The translations under genes were made by a program, and so were the position numbers. Shown piece by piece: positions 13,980 to 62,205 of a stretch of 64,000 bases of DNA. Origin of the DNA: Candidatus Moraniibacteriota bacterium (lineage in GTDB: Bacteria; Patescibacteriota; Minisyncoccia; Moranbacterales; UBA2206). The DNA lies in NCBI GenBank assembly GCA_049297495.1, contig JBAQUL010000014.1, forward strand, positions 6,359 to 70,358, given 5' to 3'. The stretch's first letter is position 1, and each line of letters begins with the position of its first letter. The notes beneath the pieces are model-generated. The model was given only the letters and a program-made list of their open reading frames with translations. It searched no databases and was not told the DNA's origin.

Positions 13980-14008
13980 AATTTTATGATTACAAGACTT
14001 ACGCGCTT

Positions 14009-24379: not shown

Positions 24380-24387
24380 AATATTAT

Positions 24388-30200: not shown

Positions 30201-33200
30201 TGACTGTTTGGGGAGTGGTACCAGAGATAGTGCCTCCTGTTCCAGGATGGTACGTTAAGGTGTAGGCGTTAATGGCAAAGTTGGCAGTGACGGTAAGATT
30301 GCCAGTCACATTAGTGTCAGTTCTCGGGTTGTCAGTGGAACTGTCGGACCAGTTGACAAAATGATAGTTGGAGTTTGGGACAGCGCTGACAGCTGTTCCG
30401 TCTGCACCATCATTAACTATTTGAGGTGATGTACCAGAAACTCCTCCGTTCGCTCCGGCAGTATAAGTAAGAGTGTGGGTTATGACTGCGTTTTCGGCAA
30501 AGTTAGCAGTGACGGTAATATTGCTGGTAACATTAGTATCGATTCGAGGATTATCAGTATTGCTATCAGACCAATCAACAAAGTGATAGCCCACAGCAGG
30601 AACAGCAACAACTTCTGATCCGTCACCATTTTCAATCACAGATTGAGGAGTTGTTCCTGAGATTGATCCATTAGCTCCGGCAGTATAGGTCAAGGTGTAA
30701 CTCGTAACGCTTCCGAAAGTCCAAAGCTCTCTCCCATTATCACCATTATCAGCCACAAATATTGGCACATTATTAAGATTGACAATCCTGGCATTAGCAT
30801 TTACACCATCACCTCCAACAAAAATATCTTCCACCATCTTCGTTCCAACAGTTGTTCCATCTGATTCCCAAAGTTCGGACCCATGACTCGAAGAACCATC
30901 AGTTGCCTTAAAATACATGATACCATCAACATTGGTCAGCTTACTGGGTTCAGTGGCACCCGCTCCAGAATAGATATCTTTAACTAGGACTGTTCCGCTT
31001 TCAGTTCCATCAGTTTTCCAAAGTTTTCCCGGGTACTGGCCAGCACTAAAATAGAGGCTAACATCGGAAGCGGCATAATTATTTGGGTTGGAAAATGCTC
31101 CCACTGTAATATCCTTTACCAGAACCGTTCCACTTGCGGTGCCATTTGATTTCCAAAGTTCATTGCTATGAACACCATCATCTGCAGCAAAATACACCTC
31201 ATTATTATACACAAAGAGATTATATCCAAAGGACCCATTAGACCCGTCGTAAATATCTTTAACCATTACCGTTCCACCCACTGTACCATCTGATTTCCAA
31301 AGTTCACTGCCATTAATACCATTGCTAGCATTGAAATACAGCGCATTACCGATACTCACTAATGTTTCTATGCCAGAACCATTCGAACCCGGATAAATAT
31401 CCTTGACCATCGTTGTGCCATCACTTGTTCCGTCCGAACGCCACAACTCAGGACCGTTGACATTGTCATTGGCCTTGAAATATAAAATGCCATTCATGCT
31501 GGTGAGCAGATATGGATAGATTGAATCATCTCCCACTCCCGGATAAATATTTTTCACCATCTCCGTTCCACTCTCAGTACCATCTGATTTCCAAAGCTCA
31601 TAGCCATTACCATCATTAGCGGAAAAATAGAAAATGCCATTCACGTCGCCCCTAGCGCTCGCCCAATAATACAAGCCATCTTGCGTACCAATATAAATAT
31701 CTTTCACGAGCACTGTTCCACTTTCTGTGCCGTCTGTTTTCCACAATTCTCTCCCATGCACACCGTCATCAGCCGCAAAATATAGCGTATCGCCCACAAC
31801 GTGGAAAAGACTAGGTGAAGCATAAATTGAATTCCCAAGATTAATATCTTTAACCATGGTAGTTCCAATAATTGTGCCGTCTGTTTTCCAAAGCTCATAG
31901 CCATGAATACCATCGTTAGCAGAAAAATATGTCTCCCCATTAAAGATAGTCAAGTTATCTGGGTATGCACTACCTTTTGTTAGATTCGTATCCCGCACAA
32001 GAACAGTTCCCCCACTTGTGCCATCTGTTTTCCAGGGCTCTTCACCATGATCACCATCACTAGCAGCGAAATACAGTGTTCCACCAGCATCAACCATGCG
32101 TGATGCCAATGAGCCATTAAATCCAGCGAAAATATCTTTCATCATCACTGTTCCCCCTGATGTACCGTTTGATTTCCAAAGCTCCTTCCCATGGACACCA
32201 TCACTGGCCTGAAAATACAATTCTCCCCCAAATCCTCCTGTAATTCTCATGTCACTATAGAAAACCAAAGAAACACCATCAGAAATACCTGGGTTAATGT
32301 CCTTAACCAAGTTAGTGCCAAGATTCGTTCCATCCGACCGCCAAAGCTCATTACCATCAGGACCATCATTGGCAAAGAAATATAATATACCACCAACGTT
32401 GGTCAAGAGACTGGGATAGGAGGAGCCACCAATAACACTGATATCTTTAACAATCGAAGCGCCACTACCATCAGCTTTCCATAACTCAGCACCATGAGAA
32501 TGATGTTGCTCATCAAAAGAATCATAATAATAATCTGTCGCTTGAAAATACAATGCGCCATTCATCGTCTTAAAATAACTCGGATCCGAACCAATCGCTC
32601 CCTCATAGATATCGCCAACTATTGTCGTGCCAGCGCTTGTTCCGTCCGATCTCCACACCTCATCACCAATCGCTCCCGTCCTGGCAACGAAATAGAAAAC
32701 ACCACCAACATTTTCCGCAACCTTAAAACCATTGTTCTTCGCATATCCATAAGTAATAGAATCAAGTCCGCTACTGCTTCCAGCATAAATATCTCTCACC
32801 ATCTCAGTTCCACTAGGCGTTCCATTAGATTTCCAAAGCTCATAACCATTAACACCATCATCTGCCCCAAAATACAAAATTCCGTTGACATCAGTCAGGC
32901 CAAGAATAAATCCACCTGTAGCGCTAGGGTTCGTGTCCTTCACGATCTCAGTTCCAATTTCCGTGCCATCAGATTTCCAAAGAGTGTCGTTACACGCCCA
33001 ATATAAAGATCCACCGCTCGCTACGGGATCTGAATGATCAGCGCAAACTTCAACGCCTGATTTCACCAATACCGTACCAGCTATCGTCCCATCAGATTTC
33101 CACAGTTGATCCTCTGACGCGAAAGTAAGCACTCCATAGAATGCAACTCCATTAACATCAGTTATGTCAATTCTGTCGCTATTCATAAAAGTACCCAGAA

Positions 33201-36200
33201 GCACAGTTCCATCGTGCGTTCCGTCAGAACCCCAAACTTGCATACTATTTCCCGATGTACCTTCCAGTGTGTCACCACCTTTCTCCGTGAAAAAAACCTT
33301 CCCGCCACTTCCTTCCATGCTCCAAATTGTTCCACCAGCATCCGTTGTCTTGTTGATATCAATCATGTACGGATCCCCGAGTATTCTTGTAAAATTAACT
33401 GTAACGGAAATATTGGAATTTATATCAGTGTCCGTTCTGGGATTCTGAGTGGATCCATCACTCCAATCAACAAAACGATAGCCTGCATCCGGAATTGCAG
33501 TTACGACCGTACCATCTCTTCCTGGATTAACTGATTGAGACAGATTGCCCGAAAGAGTCCCTCCGGCTTCTCCGGTATAGCTTAGAGTATAAATAATATT
33601 TGAAAAGGTAGCGGTTACATTAATATTGCCAGTAACGTTAATGTCGGTTCTGGGATTTTGAGTGGATCCATCACTCCAATCAACAAGATGATAGGTAGAA
33701 TCAGGAATTGCCTCAACTGCTGAACCGCTAGCACCATGATTAACAGTCTGTGCTGTTACTCCAGAAAGAGAACCATTGGCCGCAGCAGCATAATTCAACG
33801 AATAAACATTGATTGCAAAATTAGCGGTAACCGCAATATGATTTGTCACGTTCGTATCAGTTCGACTGGCCGTCATCACTCCGTCGCTCCAATCGACAAA
33901 ATGATAACCCGTATCGGAAACGGCAGTAACAGCAGAAGCATCATTACCATCATCAACTACCTGCGGAGAAACACCGGAAATTGTTCCGTTTAATCCGGCG
34001 GTATAGGTTAAAGTGTAGGGAGCAAAAAGAGCCGTGACAGTAATGTTATCCTGAACATTAGTATCGGTTCTTGGATTTTGAGTTGAGCCATCACTCCATC
34101 TCGTGAAATGATATGTCGAATCAGGACTTGCCGTAACCGCGCTACCATCTGCCTCATAGGCAACTGTCTGGGGAGTTGTACCACTAATAGAACCATGCAG
34201 TCCCGCGACATAAGTCAACGTTAAATTTTCTGGAGCAAAATTAGCAGTGACAGAAATATTATTCGTCACGTCCAGATCTGTTCTCGGATTTTGAGTGGAA
34301 CCATCGCTCCAACTGGCAAAATGATAATCTACGTCAGGAATCGCCGTGACCGCCGTTCCATTGGAACGGTAAGCGATAGTTTGAGAAGTTGCGCCAGAAA
34401 GTGTTCCATGCGCTCCTGCGGCATAGCTCAATGTGCGAGTATCATTTTGAAATTCTATCGTAACATCTGAAATTGAGGAGGCATTTCTTCCATCGGACAA
34501 AAGAAAAATTTTATATTGAACATATTGATCATCGGTCTTATCATTCTGAGTATCATCAATCAATTCATCCCCGACAGAATCAGTGAAGTATGTCGTTGAA
34601 CTGCAAGATCCCGCGACGCCATCATTCGGTCCACACCAAGGAGTCCAGTTCGCATTGTCCGGAGAAGTACGAAGCTGAAAATTAATATCAGAACCAGGAA
34701 GCAAAGTTTCATTCCAACGCAACTTTCCCATAATCGCCAGCAGAAGATTCGTGTTATAGCTTGAAGATTGAAGAATTTGATTAGTTGGATAATACTGATA
34801 ATTGAAAGTAATGTCGCTCAAGGTCGGCGTTGCAGTTGTGTCCGTAGTGGCTAAATTCGCACGATACTGAAAATATTGACTTGTACCAAGCGCTGAGATA
34901 CTTGCTCCAGTCGAAACATCAAGTTGCCAATCCGTCCAAGTCCCATCAGGCGTTCCAACACTTCCCGCACGAATATCAATCGTTAGGGTTGTGTTTGCCG
35001 GAGTAGTTTTGGTAAATGCAAGTGTGTCAGGAAAAGATTTTTGACCTGAATCTATGATGGATGAAATGAATGTTCCTGGGGTGCTAAATGTTATCGCGCC
35101 AAAATTAAAATTTGGTCCAGCATCCTTCACTTGAGTTGGTGTGAGTCTTTGTGTCGTGGTCATGTCGCCCAATTGACCATTACCATTATTCCCCCAACAA
35201 TAAACCGTATTGCCTGATTCAAAAGTACAAGAATGTGCATTGCCCGTTGTGACATCGCTAGCACCAGCTAGATTGCCAGATCCACCAACTCCCAAGACTT
35301 GAATTGGAGCTAACTTTTGAACAACAGTATTATCGCCTAGTTGACCATTGGTATTAAGCCCCCAGCAATATGCTGAACCGTCAGATATAGCCGCACATGA
35401 ATAGGCATAACCAGAAGCAATTCGACTAACACCAGCCAAAGTGCCAGCACCGCCCACACCCTTCACTTGGGTTGGGATAAGTCTTTGGGTCGTACTATTA
35501 TCACCCAATCTTCCGTTAGTGTTTAGCCCCCAACAATAAGCCGCACCGTCTGATTTGACAGCGCAAGTATGCGCATCTCCAGCTGAAATTTGATTAACAC
35601 CAGTTAGACTGCCCAATACCTGAACGGGAGCTGGCCTTTGTGTGGTAGAATTATCTCCCAATCGTCCGTTTAAGTTATATCCCCAGCAATAAGCAGTACC
35701 ATCAATTTTTGCGGCGCAAGTATGCGCCATTCCTGCAGAAACCCGACTGACACTTGTTAAGTTTCCCGCACCACCTACGCCCAAAACTTGGATAGGTGCG
35801 TTTCTCTGTGTCGTAGTATTATCTCCCAATTGACCAGTGCCATTACTTCCCCAACAAAAAACTGTATTATCCGTTTTAACAGCGCAAGTATGAAAACTTC
35901 CGGCTTCAACACTACTAACACCCGTCAAAAAGCCACTCCCACCAACTCCCTTCACTTGAACTGGCGTATATCTGATTGAAGTTGTATTGTCTCCAATCTG
36001 GCCACTACTATTACTTCCCCAGCAATAAACTGTGCCATCCGTTTTTAATGCGCAAGAGTGAGAATCTCCCGTTGCTACCTGACTAACGCTGGTTAAATAC
36101 CCAGTTCCGCCAACATCCACCACCTGAACTGGAGCAGATGAACCAGAAGATGAATTATTTCCCAGCTTGCCGCTACTGCCATCTCCCCAGCAATATGCCG

Positions 36201-39200
36201 AGCCATCTGATTTGGCAGCACAACTATGATATGGTCCTGCTGAAATCTGACTCGCGCTTGCGATATCTCCCACCGTTCGCACATATACCGGAGTAGATCT
36301 AGTTGTAACTGAAGTGTCTCCTAGCTGACCGTTGCTATTATATCCCCAACAATAAGCCAAACCATCAGATTTAAGCGCGCAAGTATGAAAAGTTCCCCCT
36401 GCAATTTGCCTGATGTCAGCCAAATTACCAACACCCCCGACGCCCAAAACTTGAACCGGAGTGGTTTTTATTACATTAGTACCATCCCCCAATTGATAAT
36501 AATTATTCCTCCCCCAACAAAAAGTGGAACCATCTGGTTTAACAGCACAAGTATGATATGCCCCCAGAGCTACCTTGCTGACACCTGTCAAAAATCCAGT
36601 TCCTCCCACACCTCTCACCTGAACCGGGGTCAATCGTCCCCAAGGACTCGACCCAACAGTCGTGCCATCTCCCAACTGACCATAATCATTTCCACCCCAA
36701 CAGAAAACCGATTCATCAGATTTGGTAACACAAGAGCTATTACCATTCGACTCTAATTGGGTAGCATCAGTTAAATATCCAACCCCGCCAACTCCCTTAG
36801 TTTGCACCGGGGTTAATGCTTGAATAGTAGAATTATCACCAAGTTGGCCATTACCATTGCCTCCCCAACAAAAAACAGTGCTATCAGACTTAAGCGCGCA
36901 AGCATGCTGATTTCCTGCCGAAATTCGACTCACGTCAGTCAAATTACCCGTTCCGCCAACACCTAGCACTTGCGTTGGTGTAAGCTTTCGCGCGACAGTA
37001 TTATCACCTAATTGACCAGTGCCATTATAGCCCCAGCAATAAACTGAACCATCGGATTTAAGGGCGCAAGTATGAGAACTTCTTGCAACAATCTGACTGA
37101 CTCCGGCCAAAGTATCAACTCCATCAACTCCTAATACTTGAACAGGAGCGGTTCTTTGCACCAGAGAATTATCTCCTAATTGTCCATTATTGTTTCCACC
37201 CCAGCAATAAACTGAACCGTCGGATTTAAGGGCGCACGTATGAGTATACCCTGCCGCAATTTGAACTATACTGGTCAAGTTTCCTGAGCCGCCCACACCA
37301 ACTACTTGTACAGGAACATATCTATCTCCAGTAGTATTGTCGCCCAAATAACCACTAGTATTACTCCCCCAACAAAAAACCGTGCCATCTGGTTTAAGAG
37401 CGCAAGTATGTGTATCGCCTTCAACCACCTGATTAACCGTACCTAAGAGACTTACAGCCGAATTACTACTTTGCGTATTAGAGTTAGTTCCCGCATTAAA
37501 ATCCGCATTAGTGGTTTGAATTTCTGAGCCACCTTTTGATTGAAGTAATAACTCTGTTGTCGCTGCAATATCGCCATCCTTGCTTGAATATTCAGTCCAA
37601 TTTTGGGCATTGCCGGCATGACTCGCAATATCGCTTGACACTCCTCCGATCCAACTAGTCTGCGTCCACGCTTCATGCAAATCATCAATACCGATTGAAA
37701 AATTAGCCGTAACATTAACGTCGCCAGTTATATTGATATCCGTCCTACTAGCTGAAGTTGCCCCATCGCTCCAATTAAAGAAATGATAACCAGTATCAGG
37801 AACTGCGACTACGGTTGAACCACTTGACCCATAATTAACAGTTTGTGGTGAAGTGCCAGTGAAAGTTCCGTTGGGACCGGCGGTGTATGTCAAGGTATGC
37901 GAGTTAATCGCAAAATTAGCGCTAACCGAAAGATTACTTATCACATCCGTGTCCGTTCTGGGATTTTGCGTTGAACTATCGCTCCAGTCGACAAAGTGAT
38001 AGCCCACACTAGGAACAGCTGTAACCGCAGAACCATCCGACCCACGATCGACTGTTTGCGGTGAAGTACCAGAAATTGTTCCATTAGCGCCTGCAACATA
38101 AGTCAATGTATAGGTATCGATTGCAAAATTTGCGGTAAAAGTATTGCTAACTTGAACGTTAGTGTCTGTTCTAGGATTTTGCGTTGAACTATCGCTCCAA
38201 TTAACAAAGTGATAGTTCGCGTTAGGAACAGCCGTAACAGCAGAACCATTACCATCAAAAATAATTGACTGAGAATAGTCGCCAACTATCGTTCCATTGG
38301 AATCTGCAACGTATGTTAACGTGTAAACATTGGAAAAATTAGCAGTCACATTGATATTGCTTGTCACATTAGTGTCTGTTCTAGGATTTTGAGTAGAACC
38401 ATCATTCCAATCTACAAAATAATATCCGCTATCAGGATTTGCGGTGACCGCCGTCCCGCTACCGCCATCGATAATAGTTTGAGGAGATGTCCCAGAAATA
38501 GATCCATTAGATCCAGCCGTGTACGTTAAAGTTCGAAACACAACAGTAGTGTCCAGCGACATTAGTTCAGATCCATTCACGCCGTTATTTCCTGAAAAAA
38601 ACAAGTATTGATCTTTTTTCGTAAAGTTTTCTATCTCGGAGACGGTATTATCAACCTGTATTGTATTGGAACCGTCCGTCTTCCAAATATGACTGTCCCA
38701 CCAGTTCCCGGTATCAAAATATGAGAAATATAAAACATCATTCATGTCAATCATTTCATCACAACCCGCAGTGCTTGTACCACCCATCACAAGCGTAGCG
38801 CCTCCGCTATCAATTTTCCAAAGACCATTATTGCCAACACTGGAATTATAGATAAGCGTATATAGAGCGCCATTTGAGATGACATTGCTGTCTGGATATG
38901 AGTCACCCACCCCCAAGTTAACATCTTCCAATAGGACTGTTCCGCCTTCGGTACCATCAGATTTCCAAAGCTCTCCACCATGAACACCGTCATCAGCAAA
39001 AAAATACAGATTACCATCAAATACTACAAAATCACAGGGATCGCCGTCACTCGTTCCTGGATTAATATCCTTTACCAGTACAGATCCTGATGCCGTGCCA
39101 TCAGATTTCCAAAGTTCATATCCATGCTCAGCATCAGTGGCTTCGAAAAATAGACTTCCATTAAAGACGATAAAATTATAAGGATCAAGACTGGAATCAC

Positions 39201-39870
39201 CACGCAAGACGGTACCAATTTCTGTACCATCTGTTATCCACATTTTCCACTCACCTGTATCATCAGAAGCATTAAAATAAATAAGTCCATTGAACTCAAC
39301 AAAGCTATTCGCATAGCTGTCTCCACTTCCCAGGTTGATATCTTTCAGCATTACTGTGCCAATTTCTGTGCCATCGGACTTCCAAGGTTCAACTCCGTGC
39401 ACACCATCGTTTGCAAGAAAATAAAGAACATCATTAATATTACTGATATTATAAATATCAGCATTGCCAATGCCCGGATTAATATCTTTCACCATTACTG
39501 TCCCGGCTGCAGTACCATCTGACTTCCAAAGTTCATTTCCATGAGTACCATCATCATTAACGGTGAAATAGATTAGGTTGCCCACCGCAAAACTCAGATG
39601 AGGAACGGAATCATCAATGCCCGGATTGATATCTTTCACCATTACTGTTCCGGCTGCAGTACCATCTGACTTCCAAAGTTCTTGTCCGCTAACACCATCA
39701 TTAGCTACGAGATACACCAAATCTCCGACACGAAGAGAATCGGAGATTTGACCGCCATCTGCTCCTGCATAAATATCTTTGACAAGCACTGGACTAGCTG
39801 CACGGACATTCCCTGCACCCAAGAATATGGTACTACAAACCAAACTAAAAAGAAGAACTTTGTATTTCAT
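27256..39870 (-). CDS. Giant (~4200 aa) secreted/membrane-anchored multi-repeat surface protein with ELWxxDGT repeats, Listeria-Bacteroides (Flg_new) repeats, an RCC1 double propeller, and C-terminal TM plus carboxypeptidase-regulatory-like domains
   Basis: Single uninterrupted 12.7-kb ORF (the track gives 27256..39951; start placed at MKYKVLLFSLV, a signal peptide). See the finding for the domain map. Numerous antisense ORFs inside it are ignored. Confidence 0.85.
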   Translation of the reverse strand: MKYKVLLFSLVCSTIFLGAGNVRAASPVLVKDIYAGADGGQISDSLRVGDLVYLVANDGVSGQELWKSDGTAAGTVMVKDINPGIDDSVPHLSFAVGNLIYFTVNDDGTHGNELWKSDGTAAGTVMVKDINPGIGNADIYNISNINDVLYFLANDGVHGVEPWKSDGTEIGTVMLKDINLGSGDSYANSFVEFNGLIYFNASDDTGEWKMWITDGTEIGTVLRGDSSLDPYNFIVFNGSLFFEATDAEHGYELWKSDGTASGSVLVKDINPGTSDGDPCDFVVFDGNLYFFADDGVHGGELWKSDGTEGGTVLLEDVNLGVGDSYPDSNVISNGALYTLIYNSSVGNNGLWKIDSGGATLVMGGTSTAGCDEMIDMNDVLYFSYFDTGNWWDSHIWKTDGSNTIQVDNTVSEIENFTKKDQYLFFSGNNGVNGSELMSLDTTVVFRTLTYTAGSNGSISGTSPQTIIDGGSGTAVTANPDSGYYFVDWNDGSTQNPRTDTNVTSNINVTANFSNVYTLTYVADSNGTIVGDYSQSIIFDGNGSAVTAVPNANYHFVNWSDSSTQNPRTDTNVQVSNTFTANFAIDTYTLTYVAGANGTISGTSPQTVDRGSDGSAVTAVPSVGYHFVDWSDSSTQNPRTDTDVISNLSVSANFAINSHTLTYTAGPNGTFTGTSPQTVNYGSSGSTVVAVPDTGYHFFNWSDGATSASRTDINITGDVNVTANFSIGIDDLHEAWTQTSWIGGVSSDIASHAGNAQNWTEYSSKDGDIAATTELLLQSKGGSEIQTTNADFNAGTNSNTQSSNSAVSLLGTVNQVVEGDTHTCALKPDGTVFCWGSNTSGYLGDNTTGDRYVPVQVVGVGGSGNLTSIVQIAAGYTHTCALKSDGSVYCWGGNNNGQLGDNSLVQRTAPVQVLGVDGVDTLAGVSQIVARSSHTCALKSDGSVYCWGYNGTGQLGDNTVARKLTPTQVLGVGGTGNLTDVSRISAGNQHACALKSDSTVFCWGGNGNGQLGDNSTIQALTPVQTKGVGGVGYLTDATQLESNGNSSCVTKSDESVFCWGGNDYGQLGDGTTVGSSPWGRLTPVQVRGVGGTGFLTGVSKVALGAYHTCAVKPDGSTFCWGRNNYYQLGDGTNVIKTTPVQVLGVGGVGNLADIRQIAGGTFHTCALKSDGLAYCWGYNSNGQLGDTSVTTRSTPVYVRTVGDIASASQISAGPYHSCAAKSDGSAYCWGDGSSGKLGNNSSSGSSAPVQVVDVGGTGYLTSVSQVATGDSHSCALKTDGTVYCWGSNSSGQIGDNTTSIRYTPVQVKGVGGSGFLTGVSSVEAGSFHTCAVKTDNTVFCWGSNGTGQLGDNTTTQRNAPIQVLGVGGAGNLTSVSRVSAGMAHTCAAKIDGTAYCWGYNLNGRLGDNSTTQRPAPVQVLGSLTGVNQISAGDAHTCAVKSDGAAYCWGLNTNGRLGDNSTTQRLIPTQVKGVGGAGTLAGVSRIASGYAYSCAAISDGSAYCWGLNTNGQLGDNTVVQKLAPIQVLGVGGSGNLAGASDVTTGNAHSCTFESGNTVYCWGNNGNGQLGDMTTTQRLTPTQVKDAGPNFNFGAITFSTPGTFISSIIDSGQKSFPDTLAFTKTTPANTTLTIDIRAGSVGTPDGTWTDWQLDVSTGASISALGTSQYFQYRANLATTDTTATPTLSDITFNYQYYPTNQILQSSSYNTNLLLAIMGKLRWNETLLPGSDINFQLRTSPDNANWTPWCGPNDGVAGSCSSTTYFTDSVGDELIDDTQNDKTDDQYVQYKIFLLSDGRNASSISDVTIEFQNDTRTLSYAAGAHGTLSGATSQTIAYRSNGTAVTAIPDVDYHFASWSDGSTQNPRTDLDVTNNISVTANFAPENLTLTYVAGLHGSISGTTPQTVAYEADGSAVTASPDSTYHFTRWSDGSTQNPRTDTNVQDNITVTALFAPYTLTYTAGLNGTISGVSPQVVDDGNDASAVTAVSDTGYHFVDWSDGVMTASRTDTNVTNHIAVTANFAINVYSLNYAAAANGSLSGVTAQTVNHGASGSAVEAIPDSTYHLVDWSDGSTQNPRTDINVTGNINVTATFSNIIYTLSYTGEAGGTLSGNLSQSVNPGRDGTVVTAIPDAGYRFVDWSDGSTQNPRTDTDINSNISVTVNFTRILGDPYMIDINKTTDAGGTIWSMEGSGGKVFFTEKGGDTLEGTSGNSMQVWGSDGTHDGTVLLGTFMNSDRIDITDVNGVAFYGVLTFASEDQLWKSDGTIAGTVLVKSGVEVCADHSDPVASGGSLYWACNDTLWKSDGTEIGTEIVKDTNPSATGGFILGLTDVNGILYFGADDGVNGYELWKSNGTPSGTEMVRDIYAGSSSGLDSITYGYAKNNGFKVAENVGGVFYFVARTGAIGDEVWRSDGTSAGTTIVGDIYEGAIGSDPSYFKTMNGALYFQATDYYYDSFDEQHHSHGAELWKADGSGASIVKDISVIGGSSYPSLLTNVGGILYFFANDGPDGNELWRSDGTNLGTNLVKDINPGISDGVSLVFYSDMRITGGFGGELYFQASDGVHGKELWKSNGTSGGTVMMKDIFAGFNGSLASRMVDAGGTLYFAASDGDHGEEPWKTDGTSGGTVLVRDTNLTKGSAYPDNLTIFNGETYFSANDGIHGYELWKTDGTIIGTTMVKDINLGNSIYASPSLFHVVGDTLYFAADDGVHGRELWKTDGTESGTVLVKDIYIGTQDGLYYWASARGDVNGIFYFSANDGNGYELWKSDGTESGTEMVKNIYPGVGDDSIYPYLLTSMNGILYFKANDNVNGPELWRSDGTSDGTTMVKDIYPGSNGSGIETLVSIGNALYFNASNGINGSELWKSDGTVGGTVMVKDIYDGSNGSFGYNLFVYNNEVYFAADDGVHSNELWKSNGTASGTVLVKDITVGAFSNPNNYAASDVSLYFSAGQYPGKLWKTDGTESGTVLVKDIYSGAGATEPSKLTNVDGIMYFKATDGSSSHGSELWESDGTTVGTKMVEDIFVGGDGVNANARIVNLNNVPIFVADNGDNGRELWTFGSVTSYTLTYTAGANGSISGTTPQSVIENGDGSEVVAVPAVGYHFVDWSDSNTDNPRIDTNVTSNITVTANFAENAVITHTLTYTAGANGGVSGTSPQIVNDGADGTAVSAVPNSNYHFVNWSDSSTDNPRTDTNVTGNLTVTANFAINAYTLTYHPGTGGTISGTTPQTVNYGGNGTEVIAIPNPGWHFVSWDGGSTNPARTDTNVTGDITVVASFAIDTYTLTYNHDTNGTISGTTPQTIDHGSDGTAVSAVPNTGYHFVDWSDNSTDNPRTDTNITSNLTVTANFAINSYTLMYSADANGSLTGTTPQTVNHGADGTQITAVPASGYHFVNWSDNSTENPRTDTNVTNNITVTANFSNALILTYIAGSGGTITGTNPQNVSYGDDGTEVTATPNVGYHFTDWSDNSIDNPRTDTNIQADATYTANFAINSYTLTYSANANGSLTGTTSQTVTHGESGTQITAVPIAGYRFVNWSDNSTQNPRTDTNVQANLNVSANFSNALLLTYTAGPGGTITGTTPQTVTIGSNGTPVTATPNTGYHFVSWSDNLESATRTDTNVQTDLTLTANFEKNTFTLRYRDDGNGEIDGDETQTISYDEDGKEVEAKPNTGYLFKEWSDGKDSNPRKDKNIQEDLSVTAEFEKEEYTLKYNANSNGSIQGDANQTVKYKEDGEEVEALPATNYHFTNWSDGKTERVRTDTDIKADLTLTANFASDTETPTDTTYTLTYTSGGNGTLSGNANQTVKAGESGTSITAIPDNNYHFTDWSDGNVQNPRTDTSITKNIFAVANFALNTVPIEELIPPNPSNEPTTPETTKQEEEKLAETKKQEEKKRILANIEDREERIAPPLFPAIPEEQEAEAQAVAAMALSTSLLPLLYQARAAKRNMTILLRDLPLGLFGLLSKTKKKKMWGTVYDSATGDPIPLVSISVIEAATGKTKETKLTDKLGSYYFLVPKGEYQLEIKKSGYVIDSHDIDAKTYYTNVLTDPEKKKLTFTDSGIICYDLCLKATNPDQKSFKNKRLSYFFFAAIFYLGFALTIFITLSNPTSLNLFITLIYLANVIIRNMTHLGSKWGYVVNKEGTKQPFSAISLLDRNTKQLIARTISDEQGRYILLANSGDYILKTMTNASQFAQKEETITLKERGVVKRKIVV
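35150..37420 (-). repeat. ~14 tandem RCC1 repeats (CWGxNxxGQLGD) inside the giant protein gene (approximate bounds)
   Basis: Repeated CALKSDGSVYCWGxNxNGQLGDNT units read from the minus-strand translation. Confidence 0.7.
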
Positions 39871-40295
39871 CCTATTAAAAGATTTTATCTGACTATTTAT
39901 TTGATTATTTTTTTTAAAACTCTCCGTCTCACATTCATCCGACACCAACATGACGGAAATTTACTCAGAGCCGCCCCTGAAATTTCACTCTAATAATTCT
40001 CAGGCTACATTTAACTAATCTCACTCTAGACATGCATATTTTCAGATTTCAGCTTCAACCCTAATTTTCTTCAACCATTCTTCTTACTTGCTCTACTGTA
40101 TCACAGTTATCAAAAGATAAACACCCCTCAAATAAACAATATTGATTATTACTAAAATAACCAGACCATCATTAAAATCAACACTCCTTCTCCGCACAAC
40201 TCTCACATGAATCATAGCACGGCTAGCGCTTTTTTTGAAAATACAAAACAAACCCGTCACTATTCCCACAATAAGTCAAATCATTAATAGCTTCG

Positions 40296-44514: not shown

Positions 44515-44655
44515 TGTCATCCTGAGCGAAGTCCTGTACTCAGGACGCAGTCGAAGGATCTGCTCGAGGTAATCCTAAGTTTTACCACAAAGAATTAAGC
44601 TAGTGATAACGGTGAGCAGATTCTTCGACTTCGCTACGCTACGCTCAGAATGACA
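44515..44655. repeat. MITE-like element family F1, copy 3
   Basis: tgtcatcctgagcgaagtcctgtactcaggacgcagtcgaaggatctgctcgagg...ctacgctcagaatgaca. Confidence 0.7.
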
Positions 44656-44937: not shown

Positions 44938-46002
44938 ATGCGCGAACAAATCGAACAAATTAAAGCCGAATATGCTCAAATAGCCGAAGAACTCAGCAAT
45001 CCTTCAGTAGTTTTTGATACGCAAAAAATGACCACGCTATCCAAAAAACAGGCAGAGTTGAATGAGGTTATGCGTAAAATCGAAGAACTTGAACTTGTCG
45101 AAAAAAATATGCGGGAAAACGCCGAAATCGTAAATAGCGAAGAAGACTCCGAAATGAAGCAAATGGCCATGGACGAAAACATTTCCCTTTCAGGGAAAAA
45201 AGCGCTATTGGACAAAGAACTAGAAACACTTCTCTTGCCCAAAGACCCACATGATGCAAAAAATGTTATTGTCGAAATTCGCGCCGGGGCCGGTGGCGAT
45301 GAGTCAGCTCTTTTTGCTGCCAGTCTTTTTCGCATGTATTCCCATTATGCTGAAAACAAGCATTGGCAGCTGGTCCTCCTTAACTCACACCAAAATGGAG
45401 TTGGCGGATTTAAAGAAGTTGTTTTTGAAATAAATGGAACTGGGGCCTATGGCAAGATGAAATATGAATCTGGAGTGCACCGTGTCCAAAGAATTCCTGA
45501 AACTGAAAAAAATGGACGCATCCACACCTCCACTGCCACTGTCGCAGTTCTCCCCGAAGCAGAAGAATTCGATTTCAAGATTGAAGAAAAAGATATTCGG
45601 ATTGATACATTTTGCTCATCTGGCCCGGGCGGCCAATCGGTCAACACAACAAAATCAGCCGTACGCATCACCTATCTTCCCACAGGAATGATCGTTTCTT
45701 GCCAAGATGAAAAATCTCAACTGAAAAATAAAGATAAGGCCATGAAAGTTCTCCGCTCACGTCTTTTGCAAGCCGAGGAAGAAAAGCGCAGTAAAGACCT
45801 AGGCGACCAAAGAAAATCCCAAATCGGCACAGGAGACCGCAGTGAAAAGATCAGAACCTACAATTTTCCCCAAGATCGCATCACTGACCACCGCATCAAG
45901 CAAAACTGGAGCAATATCTATGGCACACTAGAAGGCAATATTGAGCCAATTATCTCCGCTCTCGAAGAAGAAGATATAAAGATAAAACTCGCCAATCTTT
46001 AA
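44938..46002 (+). CDS. prfA: Peptide chain release factor 1
   Basis: GGQ motif ([11 protein letters not shown]) and a PxT-type tripeptide (PET). Confidence 0.9.
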
Positions 46003-46006
46003 ACCT

Positions 46007-46951
46007 GTGACAACAATCCAAGCCATCCTCGACAAATACAGGCAAAAAATAGACCGCCTTGACCTTGAACTCCTCATCGCTCACGAACTGAAAAAGTCTC
46101 GTGAGTTTATTTTGGCGCATCCAGAAGAGACAGTGGACAAGAAACAGGAATCAGGAATCAATAAATTACTAACCAAAAGACTTGAAAATGAACCACTGGC
46201 TTATATCCTGGGCCAAAAAGAATTTTATGGTTTGGATTTTAGAGTTACCCGTGACACTCTCATCCCCCGCCCAGAAACAGAATTGCTTGTCGAAACTGCA
46301 ATATGTAACCTGCCTACCAGACAGGCAGGCATGGAACATATAACATGTAGCAAGAATGAGGCGATAAAAATTATTGATATCGGAACAGGGTCGGGAAATA
46401 TTATTATTTCAATTGCAAAAACAATCGCGAGTAAAAATTTGTTACATGCCTGCCTGTCCGGTAGGCAGGCTTCGGGTTACATGTTGTATGGTATTGATAT
46501 TTCTCAGAAAGCTCTAAAAATTGCAAAATACAATGCCAAAAAACTCGGATTAGATAAAAAAATAAAATTTATTCACGGAAATCTCCTTGATCCCTTAATT
46601 GGAAGTTGGAAATTAGAAATTGGAAATTCCAGAATGATAATTCTGGCAAACCTCCCCTATCTCTCAAAAGAAATATATTCCGCCACCGCGCCAACTGTCA
46701 AAAACTTCGAACCAAAGTCTGCGCTCTATAGTCCAAAGGCCGGACTAGGCCATTACGAAAAACTTCTAAAGCAAATTCAAGACTTGAAAAGACATTGTTA
46801 CGTGTTACATATTACATGCTTCATGGAGTTCAGTCCTGAACAAAAAAAAGGCTTAACAGGTTTAGTTAAAAAAATCCTACCTTCCGCCAAGATTCAATTC
46901 AAGCAAGATTTGGCCGGAAAGTGGCGAATTTGCATGCTTGAGTTAATTTAA
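46007..46951 (+). CDS. prmC: Release-factor glutamine N5-methyltransferase PrmC/HemK carrying three in-frame insertions of palindromic repeat elements
   Basis: DIGTGSG SAM motif and an NPPY-type catalytic motif (ANLPYL). The extra segments LPTRQAGMEHITC, LHACLSGRQASGYM and IGSWKLEIGNSRMII coincide with repeat copies at 46309-46333, 46446-46470 and 46598-46637. Confidence 0.8.
   Translation: MTTIQAILDKYRQKIDRLDLELLIAHELKKSREFILAHPEETVDKKQESGINKLLTKRLENEPLAYILGQKEFYGLDFRVTRDTLIPRPETELLVETAICNLPTRQAGMEHITCSKNEAIKIIDIGTGSGNIIISIAKTIASKNLLHACLSGRQASGYMLYGIDISQKALKIAKYNAKKLGLDKKIKFIHGNLLDPLIGSWKLEIGNSRMIILANLPYLSKEIYSATAPTVKNFEPKSALYSPKAGLGHYEKLLKQIQDLKRHCYVLHITCFMEFSPEQKKGLTGLVKKILPSAKIQFKQDLAGKWRICMLELI
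46309..46333. repeat. F4-type palindrome cctgcctaccagacaggcaggcatg inside the prmC coding sequence
   Basis: Inverted repeat cctgcct/aggcagg. Paired with 46446-46470 atgcctgcctgtccggtaggcaggc. Confidence 0.55.
46446..46470. repeat. F4-type palindrome inside the prmC coding sequence
   Basis: atgcctgcctgtccggtaggcaggc. Confidence 0.55.
46598..46637. repeat. F3-type GAAATTGGAAATT repeat inside the prmC coding sequence
   Basis: ggaagttggaaattagaaattggaaattccagaatg, containing the ggaaattggaaattcc palindrome. Confidence 0.55.
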
Positions 46952-46981: not shown

Positions 46982-47107
46982 TGTCATCCTGAGCGAAGTC
47001 CTGCACTCAGTCTGCTCGAGGTAATCCTAAGTTTTACCACAAAGAATTAAGCTAGCGATAACGGTGAGCAGATTCTTCGACTTCGCTCCGCTACGCTCAG
47101 AATGACA
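46982..47107. repeat. MITE-like element family F1, copy 4 (internal deletion relative to copy 3)
   Basis: tgtcatcctgagcgaagtcctgcactcagtctgctcgaggtaatcctaag...cgctacgctcagaatgaca. Confidence 0.7.
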
Positions 47108-56333: not shown

Positions 56334-56414
56334 TTTTGTTTTACTATCCAGTTAAGTTGCCATAAGTCCGATTTTTTATGGCAGGATCAACAAGATATTT
56401 TTTTGTTTTTTTAT

Positions 56415-56559
56415 GACTTACGCGTTTACCAAAAACAATCTTTAAAGCGCATGGTTTCCTGGAGTTTGTCTTTTGCTTATTTTAACCCCTAAAACCATTA
56501 AAGCTTTTCCGGATCAATCTTGGCTATAGAAAAGCTTGCTTTTGGCAAACACATAAGTC
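56415..56559 (+). repeat. MITE-like element family F5, copy 2
   Basis: gacttacgcgtttaccaaaaacaatctttaaagcgc...gcttattttaacccctaaaaccattaaagc...aagcttgcttttggcaaacacataagtc. Confidence 0.7.
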
Positions 56560-56567
56560 CTGTTTTT

Positions 56568-57545
56568 TTATTTTGAGATAAATTCACAAACGCGGAGCTT
56601 CGCACTCCTCGCACGTGGATTTCTTTCGACTTCATCAGGACCCGCAATGACTGGTTTTTTTGTTATTATCTTTAATTTTGCCAATTTTTCACAAAGACAG
56701 ACTGGGAAATCTTGGGGACAAATGCATCCCCTAGCATTTTCCCTAAATATTTCTTTCACAATTCTGTCTTCTAATGAATGAAAGGAAATTACCGCGAGCC
56801 TCCCTCCAAAACTGAGCATTCCTATCGCTGCTGACGTAAACTCACGCAAACTGTCCAATTCTTGATTAACTTCAATGCGAATTGCCTGAAATGTTTTTGT
56901 GGCTGGACTGATTCGCCCCCTTCGATATCCATCAGGCACATGGCTCTCAATTATAGAGACCAGCTCTCGCGTACTTCCAATTCTTTTTTTCGCCCGATAG
57001 TCCACAATTCCTCTGACAATATTTTTACAAAATCTCTCTTCTCCATAATTTTTGATAATTCTCTCTAAATCTTCCCGGCTATACTCATTCACGATTTTCT
57101 CAGCTGTCAACTCTTGTGATTGGTCAAAGCGCATATCCAGCGGTGCGTCTAACTGAAAACTAATTCCTCTTTCCGCATCTTCCAGTTGATCAGAGGAATA
57201 GCCAATATCAGCCAAAATCGCATCCACCTTCTCAATTCCTATCGCCTGCAATACATCTTTTAATCCAGAAAAATTATTATTAACTAAATAAATGTTTTTA
57301 AATTTGAAAATTGGGATTTGGAAATTGTTTGGAAATTTAGATTTGGAAATTGGAAATTCCGCAAACCGCTCTATTGCTTTAATATCAGCATCCAAAGCAA
57401 TCAATATTCCCTTATCACCAATAACTCTTAGTATTTCGCGGCTGTGTCCGCCTCCACCAAGCGTTGCATCCACCACAACAGAACCTTCTTTTAAATTCAG
57501 AGCTTCAATTGTTTCTTCCAGTAAAACCGATTTATGGATAGTCAT
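56568..57545 (-). CDS. rsmH: 16S rRNA (cytosine1402-N4)-methyltransferase carrying an in-frame F3 repeat insertion
   Basis: MraW/RsmH motifs (DATLGGGGHS, DIGYSSDQL). The segment FPISKSKFPNNFQIPIFKFKNIY corresponds to the GAAATT repeat at 57296-57368. Start placed at MTIHKSVL because the upstream extension lies in a repeat. Confidence 0.85.
   Translation of the reverse strand: MTIHKSVLLEETIEALNLKEGSVVVDATLGGGGHSREILRVIGDKGILIALDADIKAIERFAEFPISKSKFPNNFQIPIFKFKNIYLVNNNFSGLKDVLQAIGIEKVDAILADIGYSSDQLEDAERGISFQLDAPLDMRFDQSQELTAEKIVNEYSREDLERIIKNYGEERFCKNIVRGIVDYRAKKRIGSTRELVSIIESHVPDGYRRGRISPATKTFQAIRIEVNQELDSLREFTSAAIGMLSFGGRLAVISFHSLEDRIVKEIFRENARGCICPQDFPVCLCEKLAKLKIITKKPVIAGPDEVERNPRARSAKLRVCEFISK
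57296..57368. repeat. F3-type repeat (tttggaaattgtttggaaatttagatttggaaattggaaattcc) within the rsmH coding sequence
   Basis: Tandem (T)TTGGAAATT units ending in the ggaaattggaaattcc palindrome. Confidence 0.55.
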
Positions 57546-57547
57546 GG

Positions 57548-57700
57548 GCTTAATTTTCAATTCACAATTTTCAATTTTCATCAAATTTACAATGTCTCAA
57601 TTTCCAATTATTTTTGATTTTGAAAATTTTAAATTGAAAATTGATTGCCTGCCTGCCGGTAGGCAGGTAAATTGTAAATTGGTTATTGAAAATTTTATTA
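57548..57700. repeat. Composite F3 plus F4 repeat block between rsmH and mraZ (inverted GAAAATTG arrays flanking gcctgcctgccggtaggcaggta)
   Basis: aattttcaattcacaattttcaattttcatc ... ttgaaaattttaaattgaaaattgattgcctgcctgccggtaggcaggtaaattgtaaattgg. Confidence 0.55.
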
Positions 57701-58461: not shown

Positions 58462-59229
58462 ATGGAAGAAAAAAATATTAACGATGACAATAAGAACGCG
58501 GAAAAAATTCAAGCACTCCGTGATATGATTTCTACGGCTGAAACAACTCTGCAAGGAGCCAAATCAATGCTCTTGCAACTTGAAGGCAAGAAGAAAGTCG
58601 GCAGAAGAAGAAAAGCTGAAGACTCCGATGATGAAAAAGTAATTGAAGGAACTTTCGATGGTCAGATTATGCTAGGAACTGATGGAAAACAATACCCTGT
58701 TCCAGCTAACTACGCTTCAAAATCAAAATTAGTCAAAGGCGACATGATGAAGCTGTCAATCACTAGTGACGGCTCTTTTATCTATAAACAAATCGGACCA
58801 GTCATAAGAAAGATGGCAATTGGCACAGTCAATCAAGACACTGATGGAAACTATTTTGTCGTGGCCGAAGGCAAGGCCTATCGAGTCTTACTTGCTTCCA
58901 TCACATACTTCAAAGTGGAGCCGGGTGATGAGGTAACGCTAGTCACTCCTCGTGATCTCGACTCCGAATGGGGTGCAATTGAAAATCTCTTACAGAAATC
59001 TCGTGAAAAAGAAACACCAAAAAGAGAGATTTCCCAAGACATTGGCGGATTCAAAAAAATTGACGATATTTTCAATGAAAAACCAACATCGGTTGAGCCA
59101 GTCACAAAGACAGCACCAACACTAAAAAATGAAGTCATCCCCAGTAGCGATAATCTTTCAGCTATCGACGAATGGATGCCCAACCTAGAGGAGCTACGAA
59201 AAGAACTTGAAGAAAAAACGAACGAATAA
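58462..59229 (+). CDS. Hypothetical protein (coiled-coil N-terminus)
   Basis: 255 aa with no recognised domain. Confidence 0.45.
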   Translation: MEEKNINDDNKNAEKIQALRDMISTAETTLQGAKSMLLQLEGKKKVGRRRKAEDSDDEKVIEGTFDGQIMLGTDGKQYPVPANYASKSKLVKGDMMKLSITSDGSFIYKQIGPVIRKMAIGTVNQDTDGNYFVVAEGKAYRVLLASITYFKVEPGDEVTLVTPRDLDSEWGAIENLLQKSREKETPKREISQDIGGFKKIDDIFNEKPTSVEPVTKTAPTLKNEVIPSSDNLSAIDEWMPNLEELRKELEEKTNE

Positions 59230-59254
59230 AAAATACTAACTTTAAAAAAATCAG

Positions 59255-59398
59255 GACTTACGCGTTTGCCAAAAGCAAGCTTTTCTATAGCCAGAATTGA
59301 TCTGGGAAAAACCTTAATGGCTTTAGGGTTAAAATAAGCAAAAACAAACTCTAAAAAACCAAGCGCTTTAAAGATTGTTTTTGGTAAACGTGTAAGTC
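59255..59398 (-). repeat. MITE-like element family F5, copy 3 (inverted orientation)
   Basis: gacttacgcgtttgccaaaagcaagcttttctatagcc...ggtaaacgtgtaagtc is the reverse complement of copies 1 and 2. Confidence 0.7.
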
Positions 59399-59410
59399 AT
59401 AAAAATAAAT

Positions 59411-62029: not shown

Positions 62030-62130
62030 TGTATTAAGTAGGATGTATAATGTATAATGTATTTTAATTTAAAAAATCTTTCAGATTTTTTTTGCTTGAT
62101 ACTTAATACTCAATACATAATACTTACCCA

Positions 62131-62205
62131 GTGGGGAGTAGCCAAGTGGTAAGGCACCCCGCCTCGGCGGGGCATGCGAAGGTTCGAATTCTACAGCCCC
62201 AACAT
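62131..62205 (+). pseudogene. tRNA-like degenerate copy (5' half identical to tRNA-Gln; aberrant anticodon and T arms)
   Basis: The 5' portion TGGGGAGTAGCCAAGTGGTAAGGCA is identical to the tRNA at 62490. The anticodon arm ccccg-cctcgg-cgggg has a 6-nt loop, and the T-stem and acceptor 3' strand pair poorly. Confidence 0.4.

Follow-up and report, generated by a model that had tools for sequence, protein, structure and literature searches.

The 64-kb stretch of DNA analysed here (hereafter, the window) probably carries two distinct kinds of repeat that are read in frame in genes: an inserting 21-nt palindrome, F4, and tandem arrays of heptanucleotides. Two F4 hairpins and five array sites were located in prmC (release-factor glutamine N5-methyltransferase; 46007–46951, + strand; 314 aa), and a further array in rsmH (16S rRNA m4C1402 methyltransferase; 56568–57545/57584, − strand). 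An earlier note on this DNA had described repeats inside these genes, and its central observations were borne out: both open reading frames are unbroken and contain the quoted peptides, loops of PrmC and RsmH read repeat DNA in frame, and the repeat families also occur between genes (one 20-nt F4 copy and five heptamer arrays in the window). In profile searches, PrmC scored 222 bits against the equivalog TIGR03534 (curated cut-off 199) and RsmH 351 bits against TIGR00006. The listed form of rsmH reaches a TTG at 57584 by way of a heptamer array, and the start is probably the ATG at 57545 (MTIHKS). Both genes had been called essential, which is an overstatement by general knowledge of E. coli; in that species, rsmH is dispensable and loss of prmC causes a growth defect.

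The F4 palindrome

F4 (CCTGCCTACCGGACAGGCAGG; pattern CCTGCCT-ACCGG(A)C-AGGCAGG) folds into a 7-bp GC stem with a 6–7-nt loop. The window contains three copies, two of which lie inside prmC, and none of the shuffled controls reached two matches. Copy 1 (CCTGCCTACCAGACAGGCAGG, 21 nt; 46309–46329, + strand) lies where two units of a (CATGTAA)n array meet and encodes LPTRQAG, a 7-aa excess over the nearest relatives in alignments. Copy 2 (CCTGCCTGTCCGGTAGGCAGG, 21 nt; 46449–46469, + strand, in the orientation opposite to copy 1) adds ACLSGRQ and is an exact insertion without target duplication when compared with the empty sites of L002 and L005. Copy 3 is a 20-nt intergenic form (CCTGCCTGCCGGTAGGCAGG; 57648–57667) in the mraZ–rsmH spacer, flanked by the heptamer arrays (TTGAAAA)n on its left (57620–57644) and (GTAAATT)n on its right (57667–57681; TRF).

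That the F4 palindromes are insertions relative to the closest relatives was confirmed by alignments and by pairs of filled and empty sites. The members of each of three prmC pairs differ by exactly the 21-nt palindrome, with collinear flanks (site 2, window versus L002/L005; site 3, L007 versus L067/L004/window; site 1, L029 versus L005; array sites are described below), and two RsmH proteins of 85% identity (P0124 and P0123) differ by TSPTGRQ; precise presence or absence of a unit of about 20 nt, nested in repeats, was found in these three prmC pairs and one RsmH pair. Judged from such sequence comparisons, F4 is a true inserting element that makes no target duplication, and any single pair could also have arisen by precise excision. 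Copies are nested either in heptamer arrays, whose phase they preserve, or in a 'CGCGAA' palindrome family.

The earlier note had estimated 15–20 aa per insertion. The gain per F4 copy is exactly 7 aa (21 nt) instead of the 13–15 aa of the quoted F4 peptides, the rest of which (MEHITCS, NLLH..ASGYML) belongs to a separate, older (TGTTACA)n array common to relatives. The first F4 had moreover been placed between the SAM and NPPY motifs; it lies upstream of the SAM motif, and the second motif reads NLPY.

In the Moranbacteria sample, all five full-length F4 copies inside genes are 21 nt long, and at least six of the eight 20-nt copies are non-genic (Fisher p 0.0008 to 0.02). This association of the 21-nt form with genes is limited to this small sample; in viral contigs, 21-nt copies are also present in seemingly non-coding DNA. 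About 20 copies were counted in 1.3 Mb of related DNA, i.e., about one per 50–70 kb. Counting was done with family-specific patterns, as a generic census of GC hairpins was swamped by terminators and chance stems.

The two prmC copies form a 33-nt inverted pair (I5; copy-1 arm, 46309–46341) that is 91% complementary and private to the window genome among the relatives compared. The predicted long-range duplex of this pair encloses the SAM-motif codons and has a minimum free energy of −68.8 kcal/mol (z = −6.9). The two copies were also considered as the ends of one MITE, a reading that was rejected because the intervening 95 nt encode the invariant SAM-binding motif.

The AlphaFold2 model of the window PrmC matches E. 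coli PrmC (2b3t_A) with a target-normalised TM-score of 0.89, and in this model the fold is kept. Residues 106–111 and 149–155 have a pLDDT below 50, nowhere else does the value fall that low, and both segments coincide with the two F4 copies, in support of the loop placement given in the earlier note.

Heptanucleotide arrays in prmC

Site 0 is a CAGGAAT-type array (46137–46160, + strand, by lag-7 scan; 46141–46160 by TRF) encoding KKQESGINK within the confident N-terminal helix of the PrmC model, in a segment of 17 aa in all 81 PrmC homologues. Site 1 is a remnant of a (CATGTAA)n array (46330–46351, + strand; identified from the sequence and alignments with relatives), i.e., the TGTTACA family read on the opposite strand, and encodes MEHITCS at the position where relatives have MKHATCN or MKHETYN. 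Site 2, a (TTACATG)n array, is cut in two by F4 copy 2 (left half, 46437–46448; right half, CTTCGGGTTACATGTTG, 46470–46486; both + strand) and reads AAT TTG TTA CAT GCT TCA TGT TAC ATG where uninterrupted in relatives. Site 3, labelled 'F3', is a (GAAATTG)n array of 4.6 units (46597–46628, + strand; TRF and lag-7 scan) encoding IGSWKLEIGNS directly before motif IV (NLPY). Site 4, which the earlier note had not listed, is a degenerate (TGTTACA)n array (46796–46817, + strand; lag-7 scan at a lower threshold) encoding HCYVLHITC; relatives have CYMLHVSC and similar peptides there, some with a nested GC palindrome.

The F3 block had been taken for an insertion, a claim contradicted by segments of equal length in the aligned relatives and by the 81 PrmC sequences, in which array-bearing segments are not longer than array-free ones (median lengths at the five sites 17/17, 19.5/19, 18/17, 19/18, and 17/17 aa, respectively). 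As the prmC arrays add no length, they are replacements rather than insertions. The neutrality in length is also compatible with insertion followed by a compensating deletion under selection for loop length. Only two prmC pairs above 78% identity were available among GTDB representatives, neither of them informative, and protein-level database pairs were used instead: in a PrmC pair of 89.6% identity, an array block is swapped and the repeat type differs while the length is unchanged. The gene was intact and in frame in 81 of 81 cases recovered.

Period-7 arrays numbered 211 in Moranbacteria, as compared to at most 43 at any other period (4–12) and five in shuffled sequences. Coding DNA holds 125 of the 211 (59%), and 114 of these 125 (91%) are in prmC, at five positions, an enrichment that overstates recurrent targeting because the 114 arrays share ancestry and are not independent. 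Arrays of other periods in prmC numbered 0–3, and the remaining in-gene arrays are hosted by rsmH, dnaX, pheS/pheT, and one glycosyltransferase. Outside prmC, the density of coding arrays is about 0.01 per kb; that in non-coding DNA is 0.43 per kb. The arrays of the window have 3–4.6 units and are mostly degenerate (84% matches by TRF); array spans are 21–63 nt of 7-nt units, which are direct tandem repeats and not palindromes. Coding and intergenic arrays matched exactly in unit type in 19% of comparisons within a genome and 8% between genomes, a modest excess, and among prmC homologues neither the unit sequence nor the strand or position of the arrays is conserved.

Between genes, the F3 family is represented in the window by an array pair, (AATTTTC)n and (GAAATTT/G)n (1462–1492 and 1548–1577), and another (AATTTTC)n array (57552–57580; TRF) overlaps or immediately precedes the rsmH start. 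MraZ boxes were considered as an identity for the heptamers and rejected: the arrays are located between mraZ and rsmH or in genes rather than ahead of mraZ, and a spacing of 7 bp is at odds with MraZ sites.

The rsmH array

The rsmH array is a degenerate (AATTTCC)n repeat on the coding strand (approximately 57297–57359, − strand; TRF and sequence). It encodes EFPISKSKFPNNFQIPIFKFK and makes the protein 12 aa longer than array-free alleles, such as that of the near relative P0126. In the AlphaFold2 model, the segment has a pLDDT of about 79–87 and its end joins a sheet. A reading of the segment as a recent private insertion is at variance with its occurrence as nearly identical DNA across distant CPR lineages. 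The codons of the array are identical between genomes at 10–11 of 11 positions, as against about 54% of same-residue codons elsewhere in the gene, with no synonymous change in the array across the distant lineages compared. Perfect four-unit arrays occur in the rsmH of L162–L165, and in L165 all four units have changed together. On this sequence evidence, the array shows concerted unit change; the conserved, moderately confident peptide may also have a role at the protein level. Matches listed in the metagenome scan for rsmH DNA of relatives were mostly non-CPR (40–48% identical), with L082 alone being useful, and no rsmH was found in the 10 kb to either side of the prmC loci.

F4 outside the window

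The exact F4 20-mer and 21-mer were found in 12 and 15 stretches of viral contigs, respectively, and two composition-matched control sequences in none. One F4 host, which encodes a P22-type portal and a terminase, is a genuine phage; its endolysin and D5 primase open reading frames contain F4 in frame. In phage contigs, F4 also lies inside other F4 copies, and verbatim F4 occurs in hosts with 33% to 70% GC content. None of 20 small or unassigned open reading frames of the window gave a transposase or RAYT domain in a Pfam scan. Searched against Rfam, the entire window yielded two tRNAs and no other family, with F4 and the arrays unmatched.

Proposed origin of the repeats

F4 probably enters DNA that is prone to non-B structure, i.e., unit boundaries of arrays, centres of palindromes, and other F4 copies. 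Its mobiliser is inferred and is possibly an activity on single-stranded DNA that recognises hairpins (HUH/Y1-type). The 21-nt form is frame-neutral and is the only full-length form in genes of the Moranbacteria sample; the 20-nt form is seen between genes. In PrmC, each copy is predicted to form a disordered loop of seven residues on a helix-to-strand connection, and in the topology of class I methyltransferases such connections presumably face away from SAM and the substrate site. The F4 peptides are most likely tolerated passengers without function.

The heptamer arrays are the dominant simple repeat of the lineage. Three 7-nt units equal seven codons, and an array can therefore fit the reading frame. 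As the prmC arrays fill five segments of fixed length, we infer homogenisation rather than insertion as their origin or upkeep, for which correction of slipped mispairs in 7-nt steps, short-patch conversion, and swapping of alleles by recombination are candidate processes. The (AATTTCC)n array of rsmH would be an old addition of 12 aa that is kept repetitive at the DNA level by concerted evolution.

Comparison with known repeat systems

The closest analogues of the window elements are the STRR heptamers and SDR mini-palindromes of cyanobacteria, rather than Rickettsia palindromic elements (RPEs). The SDRs of heterocyst-forming cyanobacteria, reportedly described by Elhai et al. in 2008 (Genome Res 18:1484; cited in PMC3116915 and PMC4390886), are little over 20 nt long, and we know of no enzyme that mobilises them. 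F4 shares with them its tiny size, exact insertion, and nesting in repeats and in itself; the two differ in that F4 occurs in CPR bacteria and phages, verbatim across hosts and in frame in housekeeping genes, whereas SDRs are cyanobacterial and probably unrelated in sequence. SDR5 inserts between the third and fourth nucleotide of HIP1 (PMC4390886). STRRs of Calothrix/Nostoc and the GGGAATC repeat of Xanthomonas are tandem 7-nt repeats that are over-represented relative to other unit lengths (PMC4692102, PMC2670836), and STRR-type repeats are reported to lie mostly between genes and to be under-represented in coding sequence (PMC4692102). The arrays of the window lineage show the same excess of tandem repeats at period 7, but instead of being predominantly intergenic, 59% of them (125/211) are in genes, and their units are A/T-rich rather than G-rich. 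To our knowledge, the length-neutral filling of fixed coding segments has not been described for STRR-type repeats.

REPs and REPINs, which are mobilised by RAYTs (IS200-like Y1), are GC-rich imperfect palindromes of 20–40 nt that form hairpins in single-stranded DNA, and F4 is likewise a short GC-rich imperfect palindrome within this size range. Insertion into or beside existing copies has been reported for REP/REPIN elements (PMC3116915, PMC3733652). REPs are extragenic, species-specific, present in hundreds of copies, and located near RAYTs, whereas F4 is low in copy number, in genes (two of the three window copies), and spread across unrelated hosts.

Alternative explanations

The analogy to RPEs drawn in the earlier note holds loosely, in that repeats are read in frame within genes, and fails for the size and host range of a 21-nt hairpin and 7-nt arrays with one dominant gene. 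RPEs are selfish-looking elements of about 150 bp that are read in frame at fold-compatible positions in conserved genes of a reduced genome and are spread over many unrelated genes, with 44 integrations in R. conorii (PMC10969869). They comprise ten families with conserved peptides of about 40–50 aa, as opposed to the 21 nt (7 aa) and low copy number of F4. It is unlikely that all four segments are selfish palindromes of this type, inserted in frame and adding 15–20 residues each to surface loops. The residues in excess of solved HemK and RsmH structures do fall at repeat sites, F4 is palindromic and truly inserted, and related repeats lie between genes. But F4, which has the hairpin (a 7-bp GC stem), adds 7 aa only, F3 and the other heptamer arrays are direct tandem repeats, F3 adds no length in prmC, units of 21 nt and 7 nt fall well short of about 100–150 bp and a peptide of tens of residues, and the hosts are very few genes instead of many unrelated ones.

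A selected function of the repeats has a slim chance, be it as cis-elements (mRNA structure, protein-binding sites, internal promoters) or through diversifying selection on PrmC surface loops, with the repeats as the source of variation and, e.g., conflict with phages that manipulate the reading of stop codons as a driver. The extreme, period-specific concentration in prmC speaks for it, as do the differing repeat types in loops of the 89.6%-identical PrmC proteins, the lack of synonymous change in the rsmH array, and the low-energy duplex of the inverted F4 pair. Against this, unit sequence, strand, and position are unconserved in prmC, Rfam gave no match, the inverted pair is private to the window genome, the F4 peptides are predicted to be disordered, and concerted evolution alone accounts for the identity at the DNA level. 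A similarly slim chance is given to a bolder version, by which an approximately 150-fold, prmC-focused writing of 7-nt periodicity at five surface segments would be a dedicated diversification of release-factor tuning and not passive junk DNA, with F4 as a second layer and conflict with phages that recode or manipulate stop codons as a possible driver.

Phase variation, in which gain or loss of 7-nt units would shift the frame, toggle PrmC or RsmH, and alter termination efficiency or decoding fidelity in part of the population, is highly improbable. Both hosts modify the translation apparatus, the 7-nt unit is not divisible by three, and the four-unit rsmH arrays of L162–L165 are perfect, but all 81 prmC genes are in frame with no frameshifted allele seen, and the arrays are short, mostly degenerate, and five per gene as opposed to the usual single tract. 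The NeuO tract is reportedly single, long, perfect, and located at the 5' end, varying between strains and switching the gene; the tracts found here are several, short, degenerate, and internal, with no off allele among the 81 prmC genes. Heptanucleotide repeats are a known device of this kind, e.g., in neuO and in H. influenzae (PMC13001214, PMC2651432), and the 7-nt coding repeat of NeuO yields a heptapeptide period that stays in frame at multiples of three units (PMC13001214).

An artefact of assembly or sequencing, i.e., a chimeric join or error giving false in-frame continuity, has practically no probability even though the source is a metagenome-assembled genome, given a separately assembled Logan contig (L001; 2435 nt) that agrees with the window at every base, which also disposes of the sequencing error named as a refuter in the earlier note, the record of the window PrmC protein on four contigs, and homologous repeats at matching sites in dozens of independent genomes.

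Implications

The preferred reading, with an inserting palindrome beside homogenised arrays, has consequences for both kinds of repeat. F4 offers unusually clean evidence that a 21-nt sequence acts as an inserting element, with exact indels, no target duplication, and self-nesting; it is carried in frame in core genes and is common, verbatim, to CPR bacteria and unrelated phages, and it thereby bears on the movement of very small repeats that encode nothing. Heptanucleotide arrays, in turn, can fill coding DNA with the length of the protein unchanged, and nearly all sampled in-gene arrays of the lineage are found in one gene, whose product modifies translation factors. We know of no current model of simple-repeat evolution that explains this concentration in prmC. 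Surveys of CPR proteomes should expect loop peptides derived from repeats, such as the PAGRQA/LPTGQAG, WKLEIGN, and CYMLHAS types, which can lead alignments, domain calls, and phylogenies astray.

Gene identity and assembly integrity

The window belongs to a Candidatus Moraniibacteriota (CPR/Patescibacteria) metagenome-assembled genome. The prmC gene (46007-46951, + strand), which follows prfA (44938-46002), scores higher than the curated threshold for the PrmC equivalog, and rsmH (56568-57545, − strand), downstream of mraZ, matches the RsmH equivalog. The peptides that an earlier note had read as repeats inserted in frame into both genes, by analogy with Rickettsia palindromic elements (RPEs), are present, and both ORFs are intact. 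Records with 100% identity to the window PrmC were found in NCBI and Logan (contigs of up to 74.7 kb), and a separately assembled Logan contig matches the window over 2435 nt without a difference, so false frame continuity through assembly errors is ruled out. Catalytic motif IV of PrmC (window residues 215-218) is NLPY, not the canonical NPPY, and is invariant in 30/30 aligned Moranbacteria PrmC (protein alignment A1). A MITE-like family (~125-145 nt; terminal inverted repeats TGTCATCCTGAGCGAAG...CTACGCTCAGAATGACA; 8 half-sites found vs. 0.2 expected) has four copies in the window, two bracketing the prfA-prmC operon (44517-44653 and 46984-47105) and two a gene at 12615-14024 (12447-12590 and 14021-14166). 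Most direct repeats (D1-D20) of the window are supplied by an ORF of 4231 aa (27256-39951, − strand) with several internal repeat families of ~48-71 aa units, unrelated to the repeats treated below.

Heptamer arrays in prmC

PrmC was aligned first with 29 relatives at 54-72% identity and, in a second step, with 80 homologues taken from genomes. Its variable segments hold peptides such as WKLEIGN, CYMLHVT, MKHATCN (opposite strand), CSMFHVP, TNYKLQI, and TKYKIQN, which read three copies of a 7-nt unit cyclically (GAAATTG, TGTTACA, TGTTCCA, ACAAATT, ACAAAAT), three units making 21 nt or seven codons. The GAAATTG block (F3) is such a period-7 tandem array (site 3, 46597-46628); the other prmC arrays of the window lie at 46137-46160 (site 0), around 46330-46351 (site 1), at 46437-46486 (site 2), and at 46796-46817 (site 4). 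Related repeats do occur in intergenic DNA, as the earlier note had stated, with similar arrays at 1462-1577 and 57552-57681 and a 20-nt copy of the GC-rich palindrome F4 at 57648-57667, between rsmH and mraZ. Two more heptamer arrays, (ATGTATA)n and (CTTAATA)n at 62043-62126, lie directly upstream of a tRNA gene (62132-62202).

A lag-k self-similarity scan of the window and 80 prmC-centred loci (1.36 Mb, 85% coding) detected 211 arrays at period 7; none of the other periods in the 4-12 range exceeded 43, and shuffled sequence gave 5. Predicted genes contained 125 of the 211, and prmC 114 of these 125, which share ancestry and do not count as 114 independent events; prmC holds 0-3 arrays at periods other than 7. 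Array density per kb was ~1.5 in prmC, 0.43 in non-coding DNA, and 0.01 in other coding DNA. At least one array was carried by 54/81 prmC genes, at five recurrent positions, and the remaining hosts were few (pheS, pheT, a glycosyltransferase, and, in rsmH-centred loci, rsmH and dnaX). Heptamer arrays are the characteristic simple repeat of the lineage, and to find five sites occupied within a single protein of 300 residues is exceptional even given shared ancestry. In one genome (JAPLXG010000014.1), a 90-nt intergenic (AAATACC)x13 array adjoins dnaX (locus L162, 1050-1139), and the same unit occurs in dnaX and in TKYQIP-type peptides at prmC sites 3 and 4 (locus L002), which suggests that unit families may be genome-specific and common to coding and non-coding arrays.

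Median segment lengths with and without arrays were 17/17, 19.5/19, 18/17, 19/18, and 17/17 aa at sites 0-4; the site 0 segment measured 17 aa in 81/81 sequences, and total PrmC length was ~300 aa independent of array number. The arrays add no length in prmC and are therefore replacements or in-situ conversions, so the F3 block was not borne out as an inserted peptide. Three homologues (P0017, P0043, P0013; 89.6% identical) differ in repeat type at sites 3 and 4, their lengths being the same or nearly so, which indicates block swapping or rapid turnover there.

The AlphaFold2 model of PrmC (mean pLDDT 85; target-normalised TM-score 0.89 vs. E. coli PrmC 2b3t_A) places sites 1, 2, and 4 in helix-to-strand connections and site 3 in the beta3-to-beta4 connection, which, judging by how class I methyltransferases are generally folded, would point away from the face that takes SAM and substrate. 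Values of pLDDT below 50 are confined to residues 106-111 and 149-155, the two F4 heptapeptides. The placement in loops proposed for F4 is supported. The site 0 array is within a confident helix.

F4 as a precise insertion

Both F4 palindromes claimed within prmC were confirmed (46309-46329 and 46449-46469; no shuffle reached two matches). At site 2, the window reads ...TTA CAT G, then CCTGCCTGTCCGGTAGGCAGG, then CT TCG GGT TAC ATG, and loci L002 and L005 read ...TTA CAT GCT TCA TGT TAC ATG, with no F4. Exact 21-nt differences without target duplication also separate L007 from L067, L004, and the window at site 3, and L029 from L005 at site 1; two RsmH proteins (P0124 and P0123, 85% identical) differ by TSPTGRQ within the heptamer segment. 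Judged from these comparisons, F4 appears to be a precise 21-nt insertion. Because the differences are exactly 21 nt, each window copy in prmC adds 7 residues (LPTRQAG; ACLSGRQ), not the ~15-20 aa first proposed; given the surrounding arrays, those longer peptides combine an older (TGTTACA)n array with the hairpin. Where F4 is nested in an array, the array resumes in phase after the insert, with CA at the start of the 3' flank; further copies occupy the middle of a larger palindromic element, 'CGCGAA'. In the Moranbacteria sample, full-length in-gene F4 was the 21-nt form in 5/5 cases and the 20-nt form was mostly extragenic (Fisher p 0.0008 to 0.02, depending on the scoring of two ambiguous cases). 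A Pfam scan of 20 small or unassigned ORFs found no transposase in the window.

The two prmC copies together form a 33-nt inverted pair. With their flanks (46295-46485) they can pair in mRNA as a duplex of ~30 bp (MFE −68.8 kcal/mol, z = −6.9) around 95 nt that code for the SAM-binding motif.

In IMG/VR contigs (GC 33% to 70%), 12 stretches matched the exact F4 20-mer and 15 the exact 21-mer, and two composition-matched control palindromes had 0 matches; the range of F4 extends beyond the Moranbacteria lineage. Six copies occur on one 28.8-kb contig, a genuine phage (P22-type portal, terminase, D5 primase), in which endolysin and primase ORFs hold F4 in frame and several copies are interrupted by another F4 copy. 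This P22-like phage (IMGVR_UViG_3300038551_000082; 58% GC; L182 2768-3774, L188 1925-1945) carries exact 21-nt F4, three copies in the N-terminal part of a glucosaminidase endolysin ORF and one in a D5-type primase ORF.

Arrays in rsmH

In rsmH, the block (~57297-57359) is a period-7 array in degenerate form. An added in-frame repeat is supported insofar as array-bearing RsmH alleles exceed array-free ones, such as P0126 (86% identity to the window RsmH in aligned columns), by 12 aa; against a recent, private insertion, the array-bearing form is shared with distant CPR lineages labelled Berkelbacteria and Pacebacteria. In loci L162, L163, and L164 (RsmH identity to the window 83%, 66%, and 59%) the same codons are occupied by a perfect G(AATTTCC)x4, with 10-11/11 array codons identical among them vs. 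~54% of same-residue codons in the rest of the gene. In L165 the array is (AATTTTC)x4, all four units being altered in concert, a signature of concerted evolution. Slippage-type homogenisation would keep the heptamer arrays of the lineage repetitive, and recombination would exchange them. A GC palindrome is nested within the rsmH array of L082, and the mraZ-rsmH spacer has heptamer arrays in some genomes and is missing in others. The stretch of RsmH encoded by the array is modelled at pLDDT ~79-87 and connects at its end to the sheet.

An inverted pair of ~165-nt repeats (56408-56569 and 59245-59405; third, partial copy at 24379-24446) flanks rsmH, mraZ, and an ORF at 58462-59229, and may mark a recombination-prone cassette around rsmH. 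The 3' two-thirds of P0126 is nearly identical to the window RsmH, and its 5' third is different and array-free. Two further RsmH proteins (P0150 and P0171) have a 34-residue in-frame insert in the CIC|P region (protein alignment A2, columns ~339-372; LPALQLQLLQEKYIKAVETGSMEADELEKALRAG, the second protein having a 60%-similar version), which is missing from an 86%-identical relative and by analogy would be a larger, more RPE-like element.

Known systems and alternative explanations

The analogy to RPEs was not upheld for F4 and the arrays: RPEs are ~150-bp palindromes in frame across many genes (PMC10969869), and the 21-nt and 7-nt elements are unlike them in size, architecture, and host range. 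REP/REPIN elements are hairpins like F4, but occur outside genes, at high copy number, and in association with RAYT genes (PMC3116915). The period-7 excess of the Moranbacteria arrays is shared by heptameric SSRs (cyanobacterial STRRs among them); these SSRs are described as lying mainly between genes (PMC4692102, PMC2670836). The closest analogue of F4, as matched by description in citing papers, is the class of cyanobacterial SDRs, described there as very small elements inserting precisely into other repeats (Elhai 2008, as cited in PMC4390886 and PMC3116915).

Three alternatives are less supported than F4 insertion and array homogenisation. That the F4 pair acts as a functional mRNA structure agrees with its capacity to form a duplex, but the inverted pair is private to the window genome, and an Rfam scan of the whole window matched two tRNAs only. 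Diversifying selection on PrmC loops likewise has less support. Phase variation through gain or loss of one heptamer unit is opposed by 81/81 intact prmC genes and by tracts that are short and degenerate.

The reading that fits F4 best is a very small inserting palindrome that targets structure-prone DNA and persists in genes, within tolerant loops, solely in its frame-neutral 21-nt form. The repeat-encoded peptides are most probably passengers.
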